Shown: positions 1 to 29,871, numbered from the stretch's first letter. The stretch: 32,000 bases of DNA from an uncultured Alphaproteobacteria bacterium (GCA_934246625.1 CAKQHZ010000001.1:450001-482000), one strand, 5' to 3'. Program-made: numbers and translations. The notes: generated by a model from the sequence alone, not told the origin.

Positions 1-638
1 ACAGTTGCAGTTGTGTCGGTTTTGTCTTGATATGCTTGATTTACTTCAAAATTTGATAATGGTGTTTCAGCAGCCCAAGAATATGGAAGAATACGGAAAT
101 CTTCGTAAAGAAGTCCCTTTTCATATAGGGTTTTAAATGCCCACATAATACTTTCTGAATATTCCTTGTCCATAGTTTTATATGCGTTTTCCATATCAAC
201 CCAACGGCCAAGGCGGTTTATGATACCTTTCCAATCATTTGCATAAGTTAAAACATCAATACGGCATTTGTCAGTAAATTTATCAACACCATATTCTTCT
301 ATGGCTTTTTTACCAGAAATACCAAGTTCCTTTTCCGTTTTAAGTTCAGGAGGTAGTCCATGACAATCCCAACCCCAACGGCGGTTGACCTTTTTGCCCT
401 TCATTGTTTGATAACGAGCAACGGTATCCTTTGTAAAACTTTGTAAAACATGACCATAGTGAGGAAGTCCATTTGCAAATGGAGGACCATCATAGAATAC
501 AAATTCGTTCTTTTCATCACGTTCGTCAACAGAGCGTTCGAAAATCTTTTCCTTATTCCAAAAGGCAAGAATCTTTTCCTCTATTTCAGGAAAATTGGGT
601 TTTGTTGTGGTTTCTGGATAAATATTTTTACTTGACAT
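1..638 (-). CDS. ileS: Isoleucyl-tRNA synthetase, N-terminal fragment (continues beyond the window edge); eukaryote-like type-2 signature
   Basis: Hand translation of the minus strand from the ATG (complement of 636-638) gives MSSKNIYPETTTKPNFPEIEEKILAFWNKEKIFERSVDERDEKNEFVFYDGPPFANGLPHYGHVLQSFTKDTVARYQTMKGKKVNRRWGWDCHGLPPE... It carries the class I HIGH motif (HYGH) and the WGWDCHGLP block. It is missing from the ORF track because no stop codon lies inside the window. Confidence 0.9.
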   Translation of the reverse strand, partial: MSSKNIYPETTTKPNFPEIEEKILAFWNKEKIFERSVDERDEKNEFVFYDGPPFANGLPHYGHVLQSFTKDTVARYQTMKGKKVNRRWGWDCHGLPPELKTEKELGISGKKAIEEYGVDKFTDKCRIDVLTYANDWKGIINRLGRWVDMENAYKTMDKEYSESIMWAFKTLYEKGLLYEDFRILPYSWAAETPLSNFEVNQAYQDKTDTTAT

Positions 639-700
639 AATTGTTTCCTTTGTTTAAAATGTGTCCGTTTTAATATTTATTATAATAGTAGGATTTAAAA

Positions 701-1477
701 ATGAATTCAATAGAAAAAGATAGTTATTTGCGAGAAAAGTTTGCAGGAAAGCCAGTTTCTGAAGTTGAATATTGTGATGAAGAAAAAAATAAACTTGTTA
801 TTTTTGATTTTGACGAAACTTTGGTTCAAAGTAAAGATATGTTTTTTAATGCGAATAAAAGAGCGATGGAAATTTTAAACCTTCCACATAATGACTATAT
901 CGTTTCAAATATATTTATTCTTGTAAATAGTGAATATTTAGGTTGGGGAAAGGATTTGAAGGAACAAGGTGAAATTTATGAAAATTTATATGCTCCTTTG
1001 GTGACAAAACTTTCTAATACCGAAGAATTTTTAAATCAAGTTAAGTTTTATAATGTTATGCATTCTGTTATCAAAGAATTGGCAAAATTGAATATTGCTT
1101 TGGCGGTTGCTTCTTCTCGTGATTTATATTCTATACTTTCCGTTTTAAAGCGTGAAGGTGTAAAAGGTTATTTTGATATTATTGAAGCAACTGAGGGTGG
1201 TAAAAATTTCCGTGATAAGCCTGATACTCATATTGTTCAATATATTTCTCAGGAAGTTGGAGTTCCTCTTGAAAAGGCTGTGATGGTTGGTGATTCAAAA
1301 TGTGATATTGAAATGGGAAAATCCGCTGGTATGAAAACAATAGGTGTTGGATTTGGTGCGTTTACAAGTTTGGAAAAAATGAAATCTTGTAGACCTAATG
1401 TTTTGCTTAGTCGTAAGGAAGAATTGAAAGATATTCCTGTTCATATAAAATATTTGTTAAATCAAAAATCAAAATAA
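701..1477 (+). CDS. HAD-superfamily hydrolase (phosphoglycolate phosphatase-like)
   Basis: 258-aa ORF. HAD motif I is DFDETL (IFDFDETLVQS), motif II is VASSR, and motif IV is GDSKCDIEMG. An AGGA sits about 9 nt upstream of the ATG. Confidence 0.8.
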   Translation: MNSIEKDSYLREKFAGKPVSEVEYCDEEKNKLVIFDFDETLVQSKDMFFNANKRAMEILNLPHNDYIVSNIFILVNSEYLGWGKDLKEQGEIYENLYAPLVTKLSNTEEFLNQVKFYNVMHSVIKELAKLNIALAVASSRDLYSILSVLKREGVKGYFDIIEATEGGKNFRDKPDTHIVQYISQEVGVPLEKAVMVGDSKCDIEMGKSAGMKTIGVGFGAFTSLEKMKSCRPNVLLSRKEELKDIPVHIKYLLNQKSK

Positions 1478-1553
1478 TATTTCATAAAGTTAGTGATATT
1501 TTTTAATTTGATTATATAATAGTCATATAAAATCAATTTAGAGGTCTTTTATT

Positions 1554-3395
1554 ATGAAGTATGATGTTGTTGTGGTTGGTGCTGGACACGCAGGAATTGA
1601 GGCTGGTTCCGCATCTGCTAGATTAGGTCTTAAAACGGCTCTTGTAAGTTTTTCAAAAAATAATATTGGAGAAATGAGTTGCAATCCATCTATTGGTGGA
1701 CTTGGTAAAGGTCATTTGGTAAGAGAAATTGATGCTCTTGATGGTGTTATGGCAAGGGCGATTGATTTTGCAGGGACTCAATTTAGAGTTTTAAATGCTT
1801 CAAAGGGGGCTGCGGTTCAAGGTCCACGTGCACAAGCAGATAGAGAGCTTTATAAAAAGGCCGTTAATTCAATTTTGGCTGAATATAAAACTTTGGATAT
1901 TATAGAAGACGAAGTTATAGAAATTCTTTTTGATGATGATTTTAAAAATGTTAAGGGTGTTGTTTTAAAGTCCGCTGGTGTAATAGAATGTAAATCAGTT
2001 GTCCTTACAACTGGAACTTTCCTTAATGGTATTATGCATACTGGGGAAGAAAAAACAAAGGGTGGAAGAATTGGTGAAAAAGCGTCCTATGGAATTACAG
2101 AATCGCTTAAAAAAGCCGGCTTTTCTATTTTACGACTTAAAACTGGAACCCCAGCAAGACTTTCAATGAAGACTATTGATTATAGTGAACTTGAGTGTCA
2201 AACAAGTGATGAAGTGCCTGAACCTTTTTCATATATGACAGATAAGATTACACAAGAATTGATACCTTGTTATATAACCTATACAAATCTTAAAACACAT
2301 AAAATTATTACAGATAATAAAGATAGGACTCCTCTTTATAATGGGCAAATTAAATCTATTGGTCCAAGATATTGTCCAAGTATTGAAGATAAGGTTGTTC
2401 GTTTTGCTCATCACGAATCTCATCATGTGTTTTTGGAGCAAGAAGGTTATGGTTCAGATGTGATTTATCCAAATGGAATTTCAACATCATTGCCAAAAGA
2501 TGTGCAAGATGAGTTTATTCATTCTATTAAAGGGTTAGAGCATGTGAAAATTCTTCGCTATGGTTATGCGATTGAATATGATGCAATAGATGCTCGTGAG
2601 TTAAAAGCTACACTTGGTTCTAAACGCATAAAAGGACTTTATTTTGCAGGTCAGATAAATGGAACAAGTGGTTATGAAGAAGCCGCAAGTCAGGGTATTC
2701 TTGCTGGTATCAATGCGGGATTGTTTGCAAAGGGTGAAGATGAAGTTGTTCTTGATAGGGCTCAAGCATACATTGGTGTGTTGGTTGATGATATTACAAC
2801 TTTGGGTGTTGATGAACCATACAGAATGTTCACTTCTCGTTCAGAATATAGGTTAAGTATTAGGGCGGATAATGCCGACCAAAGATTGACACCTCTTGGT
2901 ATCAAAATTGGGGTGGTTGGTGATAAAAGAACCGGCTTTTTCAATGAAAAAATGAAAAAAATGGACGAGTTTAAAAAGTTTTTAAAATCTCATAAACTTA
3001 ATCTTAAAATGCTTAAAAGTGTTGGAATAGATGTTGTTGGTATTGCTGGAAACAATTTGTATGATGCTTTGCGTTATGCAGAAATTGATATGAAAGTTTT
3101 AAAGCAACTTTATCCTGAAATTTCAAATTTTGATGAAAAAATTGTTAATCAAATTGAAATAGAAGGTAAATATCAAGGCTATTTAAAACGTCAACAAAAG
3201 GATATTGAAGCATATAAAAAAGACCAAAGTTTGAAAATTCCATCAAATATTGATTATGACAAAGTTGGTGGACTTACCTTAGAAGTTAGGGCAAAGTTGA
3301 AAAAGGCAAATCCTGAAACTTTGGCTTCGGCTTCTCGAATCCCTGGGATTACTCCTGCGGCTTTGACTTCTTTGTTAAAATATGTGAAAAAATAG
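1554..3395 (+). CDS. mnmG: tRNA uridine 5-carboxymethylaminomethyl modification enzyme MnmG (GidA)
   Basis: 613 aa. N-terminal FAD fold VVVGAGHAGIEA, plus the blocks GPRYCPSIEDK and FAGQINGTSGYEEAA. Length is typical for the family. Confidence 0.97.
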   Translation: MKYDVVVVGAGHAGIEAGSASARLGLKTALVSFSKNNIGEMSCNPSIGGLGKGHLVREIDALDGVMARAIDFAGTQFRVLNASKGAAVQGPRAQADRELYKKAVNSILAEYKTLDIIEDEVIEILFDDDFKNVKGVVLKSAGVIECKSVVLTTGTFLNGIMHTGEEKTKGGRIGEKASYGITESLKKAGFSILRLKTGTPARLSMKTIDYSELECQTSDEVPEPFSYMTDKITQELIPCYITYTNLKTHKIITDNKDRTPLYNGQIKSIGPRYCPSIEDKVVRFAHHESHHVFLEQEGYGSDVIYPNGISTSLPKDVQDEFIHSIKGLEHVKILRYGYAIEYDAIDARELKATLGSKRIKGLYFAGQINGTSGYEEAASQGILAGINAGLFAKGEDEVVLDRAQAYIGVLVDDITTLGVDEPYRMFTSRSEYRLSIRADNADQRLTPLGIKIGVVGDKRTGFFNEKMKKMDEFKKFLKSHKLNLKMLKSVGIDVVGIAGNNLYDALRYAEIDMKVLKQLYPEISNFDEKIVNQIEIEGKYQGYLKRQQKDIEAYKKDQSLKIPSNIDYDKVGGLTLEVRAKLKKANPETLASASRIPGITPAALTSLLKYVKK

Positions 3396-8710: not shown

Positions 8711-9019
8711 ATGATGAAAAAATTTCTATTATTTTTTTCTATTTTATTTTGTGTATTTTTCAAAGTGAATTCTTCCGTTTATGCAACTGTAAGCAGCAAT
8801 TCTCTTGAAAAAATTCTATTTCAATATTGTGTTCCAAAAGAAGGAAATTGTGATGTAAAAGCCACATATAAAAACGGTAAATGTATTTGTCCTGGTGATA
8901 AATTATATATGGACAGAGAATGTTTTAAACCTGTTTGTCCTTCTGGAACTTATATCTATTATAGTAACGACACAGATTCTTGTGGTGCGGGAAATTACAG
9001 AACAAAAGTCAGAAATTAA
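8711..9019 (+). CDS. Small secreted cysteine-rich protein, type 1 (QYCVP..GNCD.KATY family)
   Basis: 102 aa. GAGGAG RBS sits 6 nt upstream. Signal peptide MMKKFLLFFSILFCVFFKVNSSVYA. The mature part has 7 Cys. It is a paralogue of 28694-29110. Confidence 0.8.
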   Translation: MMKKFLLFFSILFCVFFKVNSSVYATVSSNSLEKILFQYCVPKEGNCDVKATYKNGKCICPGDKLYMDRECFKPVCPSGTYIYYSNDTDSCGAGNYRTKVRN

Positions 9020-9113
9020 GTTTATGGGAGAACTACTTTCATAATTTTTGTCTGTTCTCTCTCCATTTAAAAATTTGTCTTTTATATAATAATCAAACAA
9101 AAAGGAGAAGACT

Positions 9114-10190
9114 ATGAACAATAAAAAATATATAATATCGGTAATAGGTGTGTTATCTTTTGTTGGAATTGCACACGCTGCTATTTTTCAATGCAGAACT
9201 TGTGAAGAGGGGACTTATGGTGATGGAACATCTGTAAGTTGCACAAAATGTCCGACTGGGGCAGTTTGTCCTGAGGGAACTGGAGCACCAATTTATTTAT
9301 CAAATTATAAAGATAAGTTATTATCTGTATGTGGTGAGATAGGTAAGGAAATTGCAATAGATACAGGTTTTTCTTCCAGTAATTTTGTTTCAGAAATGAT
9401 TGATAAACAAAAAGTAAAAATAAATTATAGTGGAGATATAATTAAAAAGGGAGAAAGTGGTTATAATTATGCAAGGGCATATTATGAAGTTAGTTGTTAT
9501 GATCTTGATGGTTATTATGCAAGTAGTGGATATAAAGCTATTACAGATTTTATTCAAAGCAAAATATGTAATGATGAATCAGAAGTAAAAAGTCATTTAG
9601 AACCTATGAGTTCATCATCAACTTTAACACCTGGAATATATAGGATTGATGTAGCTGGTGCCGGTGGTGGCGGTGCAGGTGGAAATGCTTGTGGATGGTG
9701 TTATGGAGCTGGTGGAGGTTATGGAGGTAATGGTGATTTGCAGACTAGATATATATATTTAGTTGATAATCAGCCTTATAATTATGTTGTTGGTGCTGGT
9801 GGTGGTAATGGTTGTGGTTCTGGTTGTAATCATCGTGGAGTAAATGGTAAGAAAGGTGGAACATCATCCTTTACTTTGTTAGGAAATGTTTTTGAGGCAT
9901 TAGGTGGAGATGGTGGAGAATCTGCACATAGTGGTTGTGATGTGTCTAATGGTAAAAATGGTGCTGCTGCTGGTAATGGTTTAGGTGGTGTTGGTGGTGA
10001 GAATAGATATGGTAACAAATGTGCTTATGATGGAAATACTGGTTGGGTAAAGATTTATCAAATTGGTATGAGAAAAACCGGTTGTCCTTCTTTAAGACCA
10101 TCTACTTCTTCTGGTGGATGTTCTTCAGGTGGTTATTTTGGCGGTTGCTCTACAGGTGGTTATTTTGGTGGTTGCTCAGGAGGATACTGA
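9114..10190 (+). CDS. Secreted protein: N-terminal cysteine-rich module (type 2) plus a glycine-rich domain and a C-terminal GGYFGGCS repeat
   Basis: 358 aa. AAGGAG RBS and signal peptide ...VGIAHA. The Cys module is FQCRTCEEGTYGDGTSVSCTKCPTGAVCPEG. The glycine-rich core is IYRIDVAGAGGGGAGG...YGAGGGYGGNG...YNYVVGAGGGNG...GKKGGTSSF...ALGGDGGES. Confidence 0.85.
   Translation: MNNKKYIISVIGVLSFVGIAHAAIFQCRTCEEGTYGDGTSVSCTKCPTGAVCPEGTGAPIYLSNYKDKLLSVCGEIGKEIAIDTGFSSSNFVSEMIDKQKVKINYSGDIIKKGESGYNYARAYYEVSCYDLDGYYASSGYKAITDFIQSKICNDESEVKSHLEPMSSSSTLTPGIYRIDVAGAGGGGAGGNACGWCYGAGGGYGGNGDLQTRYIYLVDNQPYNYVVGAGGGNGCGSGCNHRGVNGKKGGTSSFTLLGNVFEALGGDGGESAHSGCDVSNGKNGAAAGNGLGGVGGENRYGNKCAYDGNTGWVKIYQIGMRKTGCPSLRPSTSSGGCSSGGYFGGCSTGGYFGGCSGGY
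10113..10187 (+). repeat. 27-nt tandem repeat (2.8 copies) encoding GGCS(S/T)GGYF
   Basis: Units at 10113-10139, 10140-10166 and 10167-10187 (partial). They have the form ggYggWtgYtcWWca ggtggttatttt. Confidence 0.8.
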
Positions 10191-16640: not shown

Positions 16641-16689
16641 TTTTTTAGATGTAATGAATAATTACATTTAGTATCAAGTGTATAGTGAT

Positions 16690-16900
16690 ACGGAGCTTTG
16701 AACGGCTTTTTTACTTACAAGGGTATGAATTTTGTGTGATACCGTTTGGTATCTTTTTTTATACCCAAAGCCCCAACCTTTGTTGGTTGGGGAGCTGTGG
16801 TTATACAACAGGAATATAGTCTTTGCTATAGTCTAAAAGCCTCAGAGTCATTGTAAGTATGATTGTTCAACTGCCCGACCACTATCTTTGATATGTGGGT
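16690..16900 (+). promoter_or_regulatory. Candidate structured 5' leader RNA, copy A (homologous to 28455-28657)
   Basis: Outer stem GGGTAT (16721-16726)/ATACCC (16761-16766) encloses hairpin GATACC-gttt-GGTATC (16738-16753). Next comes hairpin CCCCAACC-tttgtt-GGTTGGGG (16771-16792). The conserved block TATGATT...CCCG.CCA... (16858-16899) ends in hairpin CCAC-TATC-ttt-GATA-t-GTGG, followed by a U-rich tract. Confidence 0.5.
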
Positions 16901-16924
16901 TTATTTTATTAAAGGGAGAAAAAT

Positions 16925-28399: not shown

Positions 28400-28428
28400 T
28401 TGCTTAAATCTTTATTATGTAATATCAT
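28400..28428 (+). promoter_or_regulatory. Putative promoter driving leader copy B
   Basis: TTGCTT (28400-28405), 17-nt spacer, TATCAT (28423-28428). It sits just after a terminator, like the copy A promoter. Confidence 0.3.
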
Positions 28429-28454
28429 AAAATTAGATTTGGATTTATCCAAGT

Positions 28455-28657
28455 TTAGCGTCCATAGGTGGACGTGGGACTGTCGTAAGTTCTTTATATA
28501 CTGCCGTATGTTATTTTACATACGATCTTTGTCCCCACCTTTAGTGGGGAGTCTTTGGTGTATGTCCAGAGGATATTTTTATATTCTTAAAGACCAAGGA
28601 AATCATCTTGCAGTATATATGATTTACGAACTCCCCGCCATTTATGTGATAAATGGG
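28455..28657 (+). promoter_or_regulatory. Candidate structured 5' leader RNA, copy B (homologous to 16690-16900)
   Basis: Hairpin CGTCCA-tagg-TGGACG (28459-28474). Outer stem GGGAC (28476-28480)/GTCCC (28531-28535) encloses CGTATGT-tatttt-ACATACG (28505-28524). Then hairpin CCCCAC-cttta-GTGGGG (28533-28549). The conserved block at 28618-28657 ends in the perfect hairpin CCATTTAT-gtg-ATAAATGG. Confidence 0.5.
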
Positions 28658-28693
28658 AAAAATTTTGTGATACACAAAAAAGGGGAAGAAACC

Positions 28694-29110
28694 ATGAAAA
28701 ACTTATCTAAAGTACTTTGTATTTGTGCGGGGGCTATCTCGGCAAATCCTATTAACCTTCAGGCTAAAACTTTGCTTGAAACCTTGACTCAATACTGTGT
28801 TCCGACGGTTGGCAACTGCGACAAAAAGGCTACCTACAATACCTCTGGCAACTATTGCGATTGTGCCAACATCAACAAATTCTATAACTCTTCGAATCGT
28901 TCTTGCGAGAACTGTATCCTCGGCTCTTTCGCAACCTCAGACTATAAAACTTGTGAGCCTATTCATTGCCCTGACGGCTATGTTGCGACTTTGATTTCCA
29001 AAGGGGCGTGTCCAGATGGCTATACTTTGCAACAAATCAATGTGGCTTCGGGTTGTGGCGAGGGTTATGCGTTGAAGAAGTATAATCCGGCGACGAAGAG
29101 TTTTAATTAA
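28694..29110 (+). CDS. Small secreted cysteine-rich protein, type 1 (QYCVP..GNCD.KATY family), higher-GC copy
   Basis: ATG at 28694 after AGGGGAAG. Signal peptide MKNLSKVLCICAGAISANPINLQA. LTQYCVPTVGNCDKKATYNTSGNYCDC aligns with LFQYCVPKEGNCDVKATYKNGKCIC of 8711-9019. Confidence 0.8.
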   Translation: MKNLSKVLCICAGAISANPINLQAKTLLETLTQYCVPTVGNCDKKATYNTSGNYCDCANINKFYNSSNRSCENCILGSFATSDYKTCEPIHCPDGYVATLISKGACPDGYTLQQINVASGCGEGYALKKYNPATKSFN

Positions 29111-29217
29111 AGATATGGGCGGGAGTTTTTTATCATAGTCTTGCTTCCGCCCTCCCAGATTGGCACTTTTGAAGAGGGGGAGGTGTCAAGGAAGAAACAC
29201 CCTCGAAGGAGAAAAAA

Positions 29218-29871
29218 ATGAAAACCATGAAGAAAAAGAAATTAGCGGTGATAGGGATAGCGGGAATGCTCTCTGCAACACCTGCCTCCGCTCAAACATT
29301 TTATCAATGTATGCCTGTAAAGTGTAAAGCAGGAGAGTATGTAAGTGGAAGTAGTTGTGAGCGTTGCACTGGAGGTTATCGTTGTCCAGGAGATAATAAA
29401 AGGTATGCGTGCACAGGCGAATGGGAATATGCAACACCAGGAAGTTCATACTGCTCTACCTTTGGCCCAAGTGATGTTCGTATTTGGGTTGGTGGTGGCT
29501 GTGCTGATAGAGATAGAAACGATCAAGCTCTAATGTCTAAGTTAGTGCCAATTACATCTTTTTCTACAAAGAAGGAAAATGGTCAAACAAAATATATTAC
29601 AAACTTTAGTATTCTATCAGACAGAAACAAATATGATAGATCAGGTTTCTTTAATTGTTTAGATAATAATTTTAAAAAAAAATATACTTCACAAGAACAA
29701 TGGTGTAAATATGCAAGTATTACTCTTTTAACAACTCCAAATGCTGGTGGTTCATCAGACTTTACCGTAAAACAATATAGTAAAGTATATGGAACGTTAG
29801 AGTTTCGATCTAGTTTTGAGTGTTTAAGATTAGGTCCAGGCGGTGGTTGTGCAAATAAATGTAATAATTAA
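29218..29871 (+). CDS. Secreted cysteine-rich protein, type 2; compositionally chimeric
   Basis: 217 aa. GGAG RBS and signal peptide ...SATPASA. The module YQCMPVKCKAGEYVSGSSCERCTGGYRCPGD aligns with the other type-2 N-termini. G+C drops sharply near 29520. Confidence 0.8.
   Translation: MKTMKKKKLAVIGIAGMLSATPASAQTFYQCMPVKCKAGEYVSGSSCERCTGGYRCPGDNKRYACTGEWEYATPGSSYCSTFGPSDVRIWVGGGCADRDRNDQALMSKLVPITSFSTKKENGQTKYITNFSILSDRNKYDRSGFFNCLDNNFKKKYTSQEQWCKYASITLLTTPNAGGSSDFTVKQYSKVYGTLEFRSSFECLRLGPGGGCANKCNN

Follow-up and report, generated by a model that had tools for sequence, protein, structure and literature searches.

A new family of covarying 5' leader RNAs with a putative four-segment switch in uncultured gut and rumen Alphaproteobacteria

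The stretch of DNA analysed here (the window, 32,000 nucleotides from an uncultured Alphaproteobacteria bacterium) carries, upstream of the gene for a 138-aa cysteine-rich secreted protein, a leader (copy B, 28434..28693, + strand) that comparative sequence analysis identifies as belonging to a new family of structured 5' leader RNAs, about 250 nt long and working by a known principle. The family is reasonably likely to combine a covarying fold with a four-segment on/off switch of the downstream gene, and we infer the switching, its direction and the transcript ends from sequence and modelling. A second leader (copy A, 16647..16924, + strand) stands upstream of the gene for a 188-aa cysteine-rich protein. 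An earlier note on this DNA had described a conserved, structured, non-coding 5' leader of a class not known to its author and had proposed it as a candidate cis-regulatory RNA; the homologues, the covariation and the absence from Rfam bear out this core claim. The length of about 260 nt given there was also right, with a predicted 5' end near 28434 and the ATG at 28694. All coordinates below refer to the + strand of the window.

All sequence blocks quoted in the earlier note were found in place, including the hairpin CCCCAC-CTTTA-GTGGGG of copy B (28533-28549) and its counterpart CCCCAACC..GGTTGGGG of copy A (16771-16792), the TATGATT..AACT.CCCG..TGGG blocks, and the terminal hairpins CCATTTAT/ATAAATGG and CCACTATC/GATA.GTGG. 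The sequences GGGAC/GTCCC, GTATGT at both of its positions, TTGCTT (28400) and TTGCCT (16612) are present as well. Local alignment of copy A with copy B returned a score of 28, which was equalled by 40 of 500 dinucleotide shuffles, and scores of 30-31 occur elsewhere in the window; a repeat search of the window did not connect the two copies, and their pairwise similarity alone is not beyond chance. Their collinearity, on which the earlier note was built, nonetheless represents true homology, as a profile derived from related copies matches only these two sites of the window (nhmmer E 3.4e-57 for copy A and 5.5e-56 for copy B, 28409-28716). The covariance model of the family, R1, which comprises 201 positions, located copy A at 16688-16881 with 146.9 bits and copy B at 28472-28641 with 121.6 bits. 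The next-best match in this search, run with filters off, reached only 8.7 bits, and the window has exactly two copies; the third operon in the window with genes of this type (8711-10190) showed no such leader in the covariance-model search.

The related copies were collected by several routes. An exact protein look-up showed that the identical 138-aa protein that follows copy B is encoded in at least five chromosomal contexts in closely related gut metagenome genomes, namely after genes for RNase E/G, MltA, DsbA, an Mtd_N-domain protein and FabZ, four of these contexts being held by a single Hadza gut sample. The coding block is near-identical between these loci from the ribosome-binding site to about 29320, whereas the leaders have diverged; on alignment, the upstream regions prove homologous, though diverged, to one another and to the two window copies, and compensatory changes are evident. 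The Mtd_N-domain gene beside one locus prompted the idea of a DGR, and a DGR link is unnecessary to explain the leader. A degenerate pattern built from the conserved blocks matched 19 places in 185,579 GTDB species-representative genomes, several of which hold 3-5 leader copies each; a slightly broader pattern added 10 places on metagenome contigs, and the leader pattern scan of viral contigs gave no match. Pattern scans and nhmmer together yielded about 40 copies beyond the two of the window, and the homologue search and covariation check proposed in the earlier note thus returned about 40 strongly covarying homologues. Both the nhmmer profile and R1 recovered 48-49 copies from 303 kb of collected sequence, and 28 non-redundant members were left after dropping copies at least 95% identical.

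All named genomes with a match are gut or rumen MAGs of uncultured Alphaproteobacteria or Rhodospirillales, the remaining copies lying on unclassified metagenome contigs. To judge by the records of the homologous loci, the family has so far turned up only in uncultured Alphaproteobacteria of gut and rumen, most of them AT-rich. Within the lineage from which the window comes, at least six diverged leader copies occur across closely related genomes in unrelated neighbourhoods.

Comparison with known RNA classes was carried out with the 4227 covariance models of Rfam 15. Over the whole window, at gathering thresholds, only a tRNA was reported. With both leaders searched at E<=10 and lax filters, only terminator-like chance matches appeared, on the upstream terminators and outside the element, the best of them scoring 20.7 bits against thresholds of 44-70. 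The Rfam comparison proposed in the earlier note therefore matched neither copy to any family. The c-di-GMP-I and c-di-GMP-II models (RF01051 and RF01786) did not match either leader at E<=10, nor did the T-box model RF00230, and the alignment contains no T-box sequence. A literature search likewise found no description of such a leader motif.

The 5' end of the RNA is marked by a TAnnnT box resembling a -10 element, which ends 6-7 nt ahead of the first hairpin in 33 of 33 members. Because this box lies at a fixed distance before the first hairpin, the copy B RNA would start at about 28434, and its 5' end probably falls near 28434-28436. We infer the copy B promoter (28400..28428) from the conserved -10 only; it would consist of TTGCTT at 28400-28405, a 17-nt spacer and TATCAT at 28423-28428. 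The -35 boxes that the earlier note had pointed out in both copies do lie exactly 17 nt from the conserved -10; they are, however, weak (3 of 6 positions) and fail the consensus scan, a sigma-70 search in which no + strand site passed, the copy B promoter included.

Three consecutive hairpins open the predicted RNA. P1 (AGAUUUGG/CCAAGUUU, 28435..28456) stands at the extreme 5' end, and 7 of its 8 pairs change on both sides among the 28 members; P2 (GCGUCCA/UGGACGU, 28458..28475) shows two-sided changes in 6 of 7 pairs with 89.7% of cells paired; P3 (GGGACU/AGUUCU with the loop GUCGUA, 28476..28493) has 91.4% of cells paired and two-sided changes in 2 of 5 pairs in the covariance-model alignment. 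Taken together in a structure-blind MAFFT alignment, P1-P3 had 86.7% of cells paired, against 73.4% for shuffled alignments and 35-45% for slid controls, and 15 of 20 pairs changed on both sides.

Downstream of P3 begins a long-range helix that stands out from all the others. Strand a, just after P3, is perfectly complementary over 8-16 bp to the stretch a' between the conserved flanks AUCAU and UGAUU in all 28 members, and the a/a' sequences are unrelated between members. They read UAUAUACUGC (28495..28504) and GCAGUAUAUA (28610-28619) in copy B, and UACUUACAA (16712-20) and UUGUAAGUA (16851-59) in copy A. The score of each strand with its own partner averaged 21.0 as compared with 13.5+-0.5 for permuted partners, a value that none of 5000 permutations reached, and in the covariance-model alignment two-sided changes affect all 6 modelled pairs. 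By these comparative data, a:a' closes a junction that carries P4, P5 and a two-tiered P6.

Of the helices within this junction, P4 (CGUAUGU/ACAUACG, 28505..28524 in copy B; 16721-66 in copy A) is kept in position as a hairpin, with neither its sequence nor its length (20-110 nt) conserved. P5 (28533..28551) pairs segment 1, CCCCAC (28533-28538), with segment 2, GUGGGG (28544-28549), and is completed by the AG at 28550-28551 that closes the conserved, Shine-Dalgarno-like GGGGAG of segment 2. Its core CCCC..GGGG occurs in 28 of 28 members and its extensions covary, as in CCCCAACC/GGUUGGGG, CCCCAC/GUGGGG, CCCCGAAUCC/GGGUUUGGGG, CCCCGAU/AUCGGGG and UCCCAACC/GGUUGGGA. P6 (28552..28600) is made of an outer stem (28552-59 : 28593-600), where changes are two-sided at all 8 pairs, and an inner hairpin (28569-88), in which the same holds for all 5 variable pairs; between the two tiers lies a conserved asymmetric internal loop, GUAUGUCCA versus AAAG. 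The flanks AUCAU (28602-28606) and UGAUU (28620-28624), both conserved, may pair with each other as P7, for which 94.3% of cells are paired; the changes in P7 are one-sided, of the G-U type only, and two-sided covariation is absent.

The 3' part of the leader continues with a spacer of constant length (28625-28630) ending in AA, the next C opening segment 3, CUCCCCGC (28631..28638), which would act as the alternative partner of segment 2 and as an anti-Shine-Dalgarno. The terminal hairpin CCAUUUAU/AUAAAUGG (28638-28656) and a second small hairpin, UUUUGUG/CACAAAA (28663-28679), both have compensatory variants in homologues, and the Shine-Dalgarno sequence GGGGA (28682-28686) and the start codon ATG at 28694 of the 138-aa cysteine-rich secreted protein (28682..28696 together) complete the region. 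The corresponding elements of copy A are segment 1 at 16771-78, segment 2 at 16785-94, segment 3 at 16871-80, the terminal hairpin at 16879-98 and the Shine-Dalgarno sequence at 16913-18.

When P3, a:a', P5 and P6 were evaluated jointly in the covariance-model alignment of 39 distinct copies, 88.2% of cells were paired (70.3% after shuffling), 25 of 34 pairs were two-sided and 266 cells were doubly changed (97 after shuffling), and no measure was reached in any of 500 shuffles. The set made of helix 2:3 (segment 2 with segment 3), P6 and P7 had 90.6% of cells paired in the MAFFT alignment, compared with 78.3% shuffled. Compensatory changes, which the earlier note had described between the two copies, support P1-P3, a variable P4, P5, the two-tiered P6 and a:a' across the family. 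Two of the pairings it had drawn do not survive the wider alignment. The outer stem GGGAC..GTCCC lacks family support, since pairing of the P3 5' strand with the segment 1 region gave p=0.26 for own versus permuted complementarity; GGGAC is part of hairpin P3, and the CCCC of GTCCCC is part of P5. The mutually exclusive pairing of GTATGT and ACATAC is a coincidence that is not conserved in the family, as the second GTATGT belongs to the conserved P6 internal loop and the P4 sequence is not conserved. The long-range helix a:a', the alternative helix GGGGAG/CUCCCC and the anti-Shine-Dalgarno logic, on the other hand, had been missed.

Since the element is multi-copy, it might be asked whether it is a feature of the DNA, be it a dispersed repeat, a miniature mobile element or a promoter segment that can invert between the repeats a and a'. 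The at least six copies in related genomes with unrelated neighbourhoods (four loci of the copy B type in one sample), the near-identity of the adjacent coding block between loci and the arrangement of a and a' as inverted repeats about 105-150 bp apart would fit this explanation. The leader copies are, however, mutually only 40-50% identical and still have their stems paired, and a and a' differ at every locus, so that no site-specific recombinase could recognise them. Moreover, across the modelled pairs G-U exceeded A-C by 169 to 35 and by 89 to 12, a 5-7 fold excess that makes sense only for RNA of this strand, and the pairing is therefore that of the RNA of the gene strand and not of the DNA. 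A mobile-element origin, which the earlier note had named as a possible refutation, was checked for and left no signature: neither target-site duplications nor transposase genes were seen, and there were no viral matches. We thus regard a DNA feature as very improbable and consider the element as a leader RNA in what follows.

An explanation at the protein level can be set aside with even greater assurance. In the window, the reading frame stays open over the 306 nt that precede the ATG, which would allow a 237-aa ORF extending from 28397, and GGGGAG lies 10 nt ahead of the AUG within GUAUGU (28562), from which a leader peptide might start. The extension, whose translation the earlier note had given as an outcome that would speak against an RNA, proved to be open in this window only, by virtue of an A-run 1 nt shorter; at the orthologous locus (L009), as in all other copies, the frame closes 21-57 nt ahead of the ATG. 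Insertions and deletions among homologues are not multiples of three, the AUG is missing throughout the copy A subtype, which has AUACAA, and the peptide lengths vary (4, 15 and 31 codons). With frames closed elsewhere and the AUG lost in one subtype, both the ORF extension and the leader peptide are effectively refuted, and the probability left to a coding explanation is next to negligible. The leader alignment as a whole contains no conserved frame or start codon of the kind expected for a leader-peptide attenuator.

The conserved segments of the leader RNA suggest how it might act on the downstream gene. Four segments can be distinguished in the proposed mechanism: segment 1, CCCC(A/G)..; segment 2, ..UGGGGAG, which resembles a ribosome-binding site; segment 3, CUCCCCG..; and segment 4, which would correspond to the true ribosome-binding site, rich in G, or to the 3' arm of a terminator. 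Segment 2 is nearly invariant and can pair with segment 1, forming P5, or with segment 3, forming helix 2:3 of 7-11 bp, the latter being favoured by RNAalifold. In helix 2:3, 91.1% of cells are paired, with two-sided changes at 4 of 10 pairs, one example being GGGAAG/CUUCCC in L003/L004; that only a minority covaries is due to the high sequence conservation of the helix, which also contains a G-G mismatch in 8 of 28 members. Changes of segment 2 are offset in both of its partners in L003/L004 (UCCCAACC / GGUUGGGAAG / CUUCCC) and in L024b (CCCCGAU / GAUCGGGG / CCCCGAGC). Since helix 2:3 crosses a:a', the two would either form a pseudoknot or be mutually exclusive, in which case 2:3 would be accompanied by the weakly supported P7.

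Segment 3 is in turn complementary to the G-rich ribosome-binding site in nearly all members. The pairing of CUCCCC or CUGCCC with the ribosome-binding site (GGGGA, GGGGG or GGGAG) occurs in 11 of 12 local minimum-free-energy folds, those of both window copies among them, and the full-length minimum-free-energy fold of copy B also has its Shine-Dalgarno sequence paired to segment 3. Predicted folds, including those of the two window copies, thus agree with a translational leader that sequesters the Shine-Dalgarno sequence. In GC-rich members, a strong intrinsic terminator (AACCGCC-UGAAA-GGCGGUU, then U7) takes its first 4 nt from segment 3 and lies about 20 nt ahead of the pilin ribosome-binding site, which leaves no room for a further promoter; with a terminator this close, the pilin gene would be expressible only by read-through. 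A hairpin with a U-rich tail is found in 13 of 28 members, and about 7 of these are convincing (e.g. L015, L024a, L036, L016, L004). The terminal region of copy B has no U-tract and thus no terminator, and the terminator of copy A is weak, so the expression platform is not uniform across the family.

On this basis, pairing of segments 1 and 2 in P5 would leave segment 3 free to sequester the ribosome-binding site or to complete the terminator, turning the gene off, while pairing of segments 2 and 3 would leave the ribosome-binding site free and break the terminator, turning it on. Segment 2 would thereby serve as a decoy ribosome-binding site that competes for the anti-Shine-Dalgarno. The off state (1:2) would be the first to form in transcription and, when computed with a and a' held out, was 6.1+-4.0 kcal/mol more stable than 2:3. 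As the off state is expected earlier and is more stable in the model, expression would most likely need an effector that stabilises 2:3 and turns the gene on. If that effector is a small molecule or second messenger, the leader would be a riboswitch; an RNA-binding protein is the alternative, and the gene context gives no clue pointing to a metabolite.

The genes downstream of the leaders are largely of two kinds. Most leaders precede a gene whose product, a small secreted protein rich in cysteine, has 102-145 aa and a conserved (Y)CVP motif; next comes the gene for a second cysteine-rich protein with CxxCPxGxY-type repeats, and copy A lies directly upstream of a protein of the latter type (188 aa). 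In the GC-rich clade the leader precedes a monocistronic gene for a type IVb major pilin (Bundlin E 1.4e-9, PilS E 3.2e-9), and single leaders precede genes for a GT92 glycosyltransferase, a secreted protein of unknown function and an EcoRI-like methylase.

This arrangement bears on whether the element acts in cis at all. An independent gene for a trans-acting small RNA that ends at the terminal hairpin or terminator and merely happens to lie upstream of these genes would account for the conserved -10 box, for the good intrinsic terminator that ends several members and for L019, where two terminators and a convergent gene take the place of a gene to be regulated in cis. In about 27 of the 28 non-redundant members, however, the next gene runs the same way as the leader and lies within 20-120 nt of it (up to 365 nt in one sub-clade), and the interval neither shows a further promoter nor has space for one; many members including copy B are devoid of a terminator, and segment 3 is complementary to the ribosome-binding site downstream. 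A free-standing small RNA is therefore distinctly unlikely.

The nature of the same genes also raises the question of whether the leader switches anything. A constitutive 5' untranslated region could stabilise the mRNA or enhance its translation, its fold protecting the messages of highly expressed exported proteins, and P1 at the predicted extreme 5' end, downstream genes of the abundant structural or secreted kind and a so far hypothetical effector are all compatible with this; the sister operon also manages without a leader. For such a role, three alternately complementary conserved segments would be needless, as would the anti-Shine-Dalgarno pairing with the ribosome-binding site and a terminator directly before the pilin gene, and changes of segment 2 would not have to be offset in both alternative partners. 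We accordingly hold a purely stabilising leader to be unlikely and favour the four-segment switch. A long structured 5' untranslated region with a 5'-terminal hairpin acts as a stabiliser in the ompA mRNA, which encodes an abundant envelope protein. The leader shares with stabilisers of this type a hairpin at the (here predicted) transcript start and genes for abundant exported proteins downstream, but is far more complex and conserved, and its alternative pairings involve the ribosome-binding site.

In its putative logic, the leader is closest to the classical four-segment attenuators. As in attenuators of the trp type, four consecutive segments are alternately complementary, with 2:3 as the antiterminator or anti-sequestor and 3:4 as the terminator or sequestor of the ribosome-binding site. 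Unlike them, the leader has no conserved leader peptide, about 85 nt, including the conserved folded domain P6, separate its segments 2 and 3, and it adds a large conserved 5' domain and the a:a' helix; control by ribosome stalling is therefore unlikely.

Two features common to riboswitches in general are found in the leader: a conserved structured domain, with covarying P1-P6 and a:a' and conserved junction and loop nucleotides, and a platform that is exclusive with part of the putative aptamer, segment 2 being able to pair with 1 or 3, and 3 with 2 or with the terminator or Shine-Dalgarno sequence. The aptamers of the SAM-I and cobalamin riboswitches combine a junction and a pseudoknot with a closing helix of free sequence and conserved internal loops. 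Like them, the leader has a closing helix of free sequence (a:a'), here around a junction of several helices whose internal loops are conserved; its junction and 3' tail may be linked by a pseudoknot, and its platform varies by member. It differs from them in its conserved nucleotides and helix topology, and no Rfam model matches it.

In putative function, the closest known systems are the c-di-GMP riboswitches of Clostridioides difficile, where c-di-GMP-I and c-di-GMP-II riboswitches precede a type IV pilin operon and adhesin genes (PMC11477304). Like the leader, they are structured, occur in several copies in front of genes for pilins and for secreted or adhesin-type proteins, and work by way of a terminator or ribosome-binding-site platform; they are also plausible on-switches for surface structures, a role predicted here for the leader. 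The leader, however, matches neither RF01051 nor RF01786 nor any other Rfam model, is larger, and has three 5' hairpins, a junction with a hypervariable helix and the CCCC/GGGGAG/CUCCCC/Shine-Dalgarno cascade. To name c-di-GMP as its ligand would be a guess from gene context only. More broadly, we put forward as a tentative possibility that the family is a new riboswitch class, with a four-way-junction aptamer, a hypervariable closing helix and a pseudoknot to the 3' tail, which would sense a signalling molecule (e.g. a cyclic (di)nucleotide or a host or gut cue) and coordinately turn on type IVb pilin or cysteine-rich secreted proteins.

Large covarying leader RNAs with a readable on/off platform have in the past been a source of new riboswitch classes and signalling molecules, and the present leader offers a compact and testable example, a putative switch of four segments whose conserved GGGGAG would compete, as a decoy ribosome-binding site, for the anti-Shine-Dalgarno. 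The clade of gut Alphaproteobacteria in which it occurs has no cultured representatives among the genomes found and, to our knowledge, almost no regulation has been described in it. The putative targets, the type IVb pilin and the cysteine-rich secreted family, itself multi-copy and partly hypervariable, are the genes likeliest to shape the cell surface and host contact. As at least six diverged copies occur in the lineage, whatever the leader senses would coordinate a regulon.

Genes of the kind that follow the leader also occur in the window without it. A third operon of the same gene type lies at 8711-10190. It encodes a 102-aa YCVP protein and a 358-aa cysteine- and glycine-rich protein, and between their genes lies another conserved intergenic element (motif 2). 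Searching with the covariance model of the leader family, filters off, detected no family leader 5' of this operon and therefore the leader is not obligatory for these genes. Motif 2 has the form AUGG-stem-loop-stem-UCCC and is located either in the spacer between the first and second genes or in that between the leader and the first gene. It was found at window positions 29114-29156 and 9022-9066 and in the homologous leader-bearing loci L025-L030, L033, L035 and L040. A strict hairpin search returned 12 distinct instances, and one more was read by eye at 9022-9066. The stem showed covariation, with the pairs GGGCGGG/CCGCCC, GGGGAAAG/CUUUCCCC, GGACAGAG/CUCUGUCC, GGGAGGAAG/CUUCCUCCC and GGGGUUGAAG/CUUCAACCUC. 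The motif also begins with AUG, and some copies have the potential to code for a short peptide that terminates in ..PP.KRG. Motif 2 is a candidate both for an RNA motif and for a mini-ORF.

In leaders of the copy-A subtype, P4, the fourth leader hairpin, has an inner hairpin with 7-9 consecutive U on its 3' side, an arrangement that a terminator scan flagged. In copy A this element (16738-16760) reads GAUACCGUUUGGUAUC followed by U7, and it occupies the same position in L001, L002, L017, L027, L033, L035 and other loci. It could be a genuine point of early termination, giving rise to a short P1-P4 transcript about 110 nt long, or else the U-run may do no more than form the 3' side of the outer P4 stem.

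Copy B differs from its relatives just 5' of the ATG of the 138-aa cysteine-rich secreted protein. In the window, the run of A separating the ribosome-binding site from this start codon (28687-28693) is GAAGAAACC, whereas every other copy, including the orthologous locus from another sample, carries the form that is one base longer, GAAGAAAACC. The 237-aa ORF extension from 28397 exists because of this missing base, which also cuts the spacing between the Shine-Dalgarno sequence and the ATG by 1 nt. The difference could reflect variation between strains or, alternatively, an error in sequencing the homopolymer.

Several homologous loci showed unusual arrangements. An orphan leader in L019 (1491-1788, minus strand) has no downstream gene and is followed by two terminators and a convergent gene, while L021 carries a degenerate copy (534-686, plus strand; 57 bits) head-to-head with a good one. 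L024 and L034 each contain two divergently oriented leaders about 2 kb apart, one preceding a pilin and the other an EcoRI-like methylase. One leader-bearing locus (L006/L007) adjoins a divergent gene for an Mtd_N-domain protein (1234-2364, minus strand); the domain takes its name from the major tropism determinant, which in diversity-generating retroelements is the variable protein.

A block roughly 640 bp long, present at window positions 28680-29320 and in loci L001-L010, showed 96-100% identity across at least five unrelated chromosomal contexts, all from closely related gut metagenome genomes and four of them from one sample. It runs from the ribosome-binding site through the 138-aa gene and the intergenic spacer into the signal-peptide portion of the second gene, and its G+C content is higher (0.42-0.46 versus about 0.31). 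The leaders 5' of the block share merely 40-50% identity with one another, and the second-gene bodies 3' of it diverge in both sequence and length (198-249 aa). The block looks like the product of gene conversion or cassette exchange within a multi-locus family whose 5' part is constant and whose 3' part varies.
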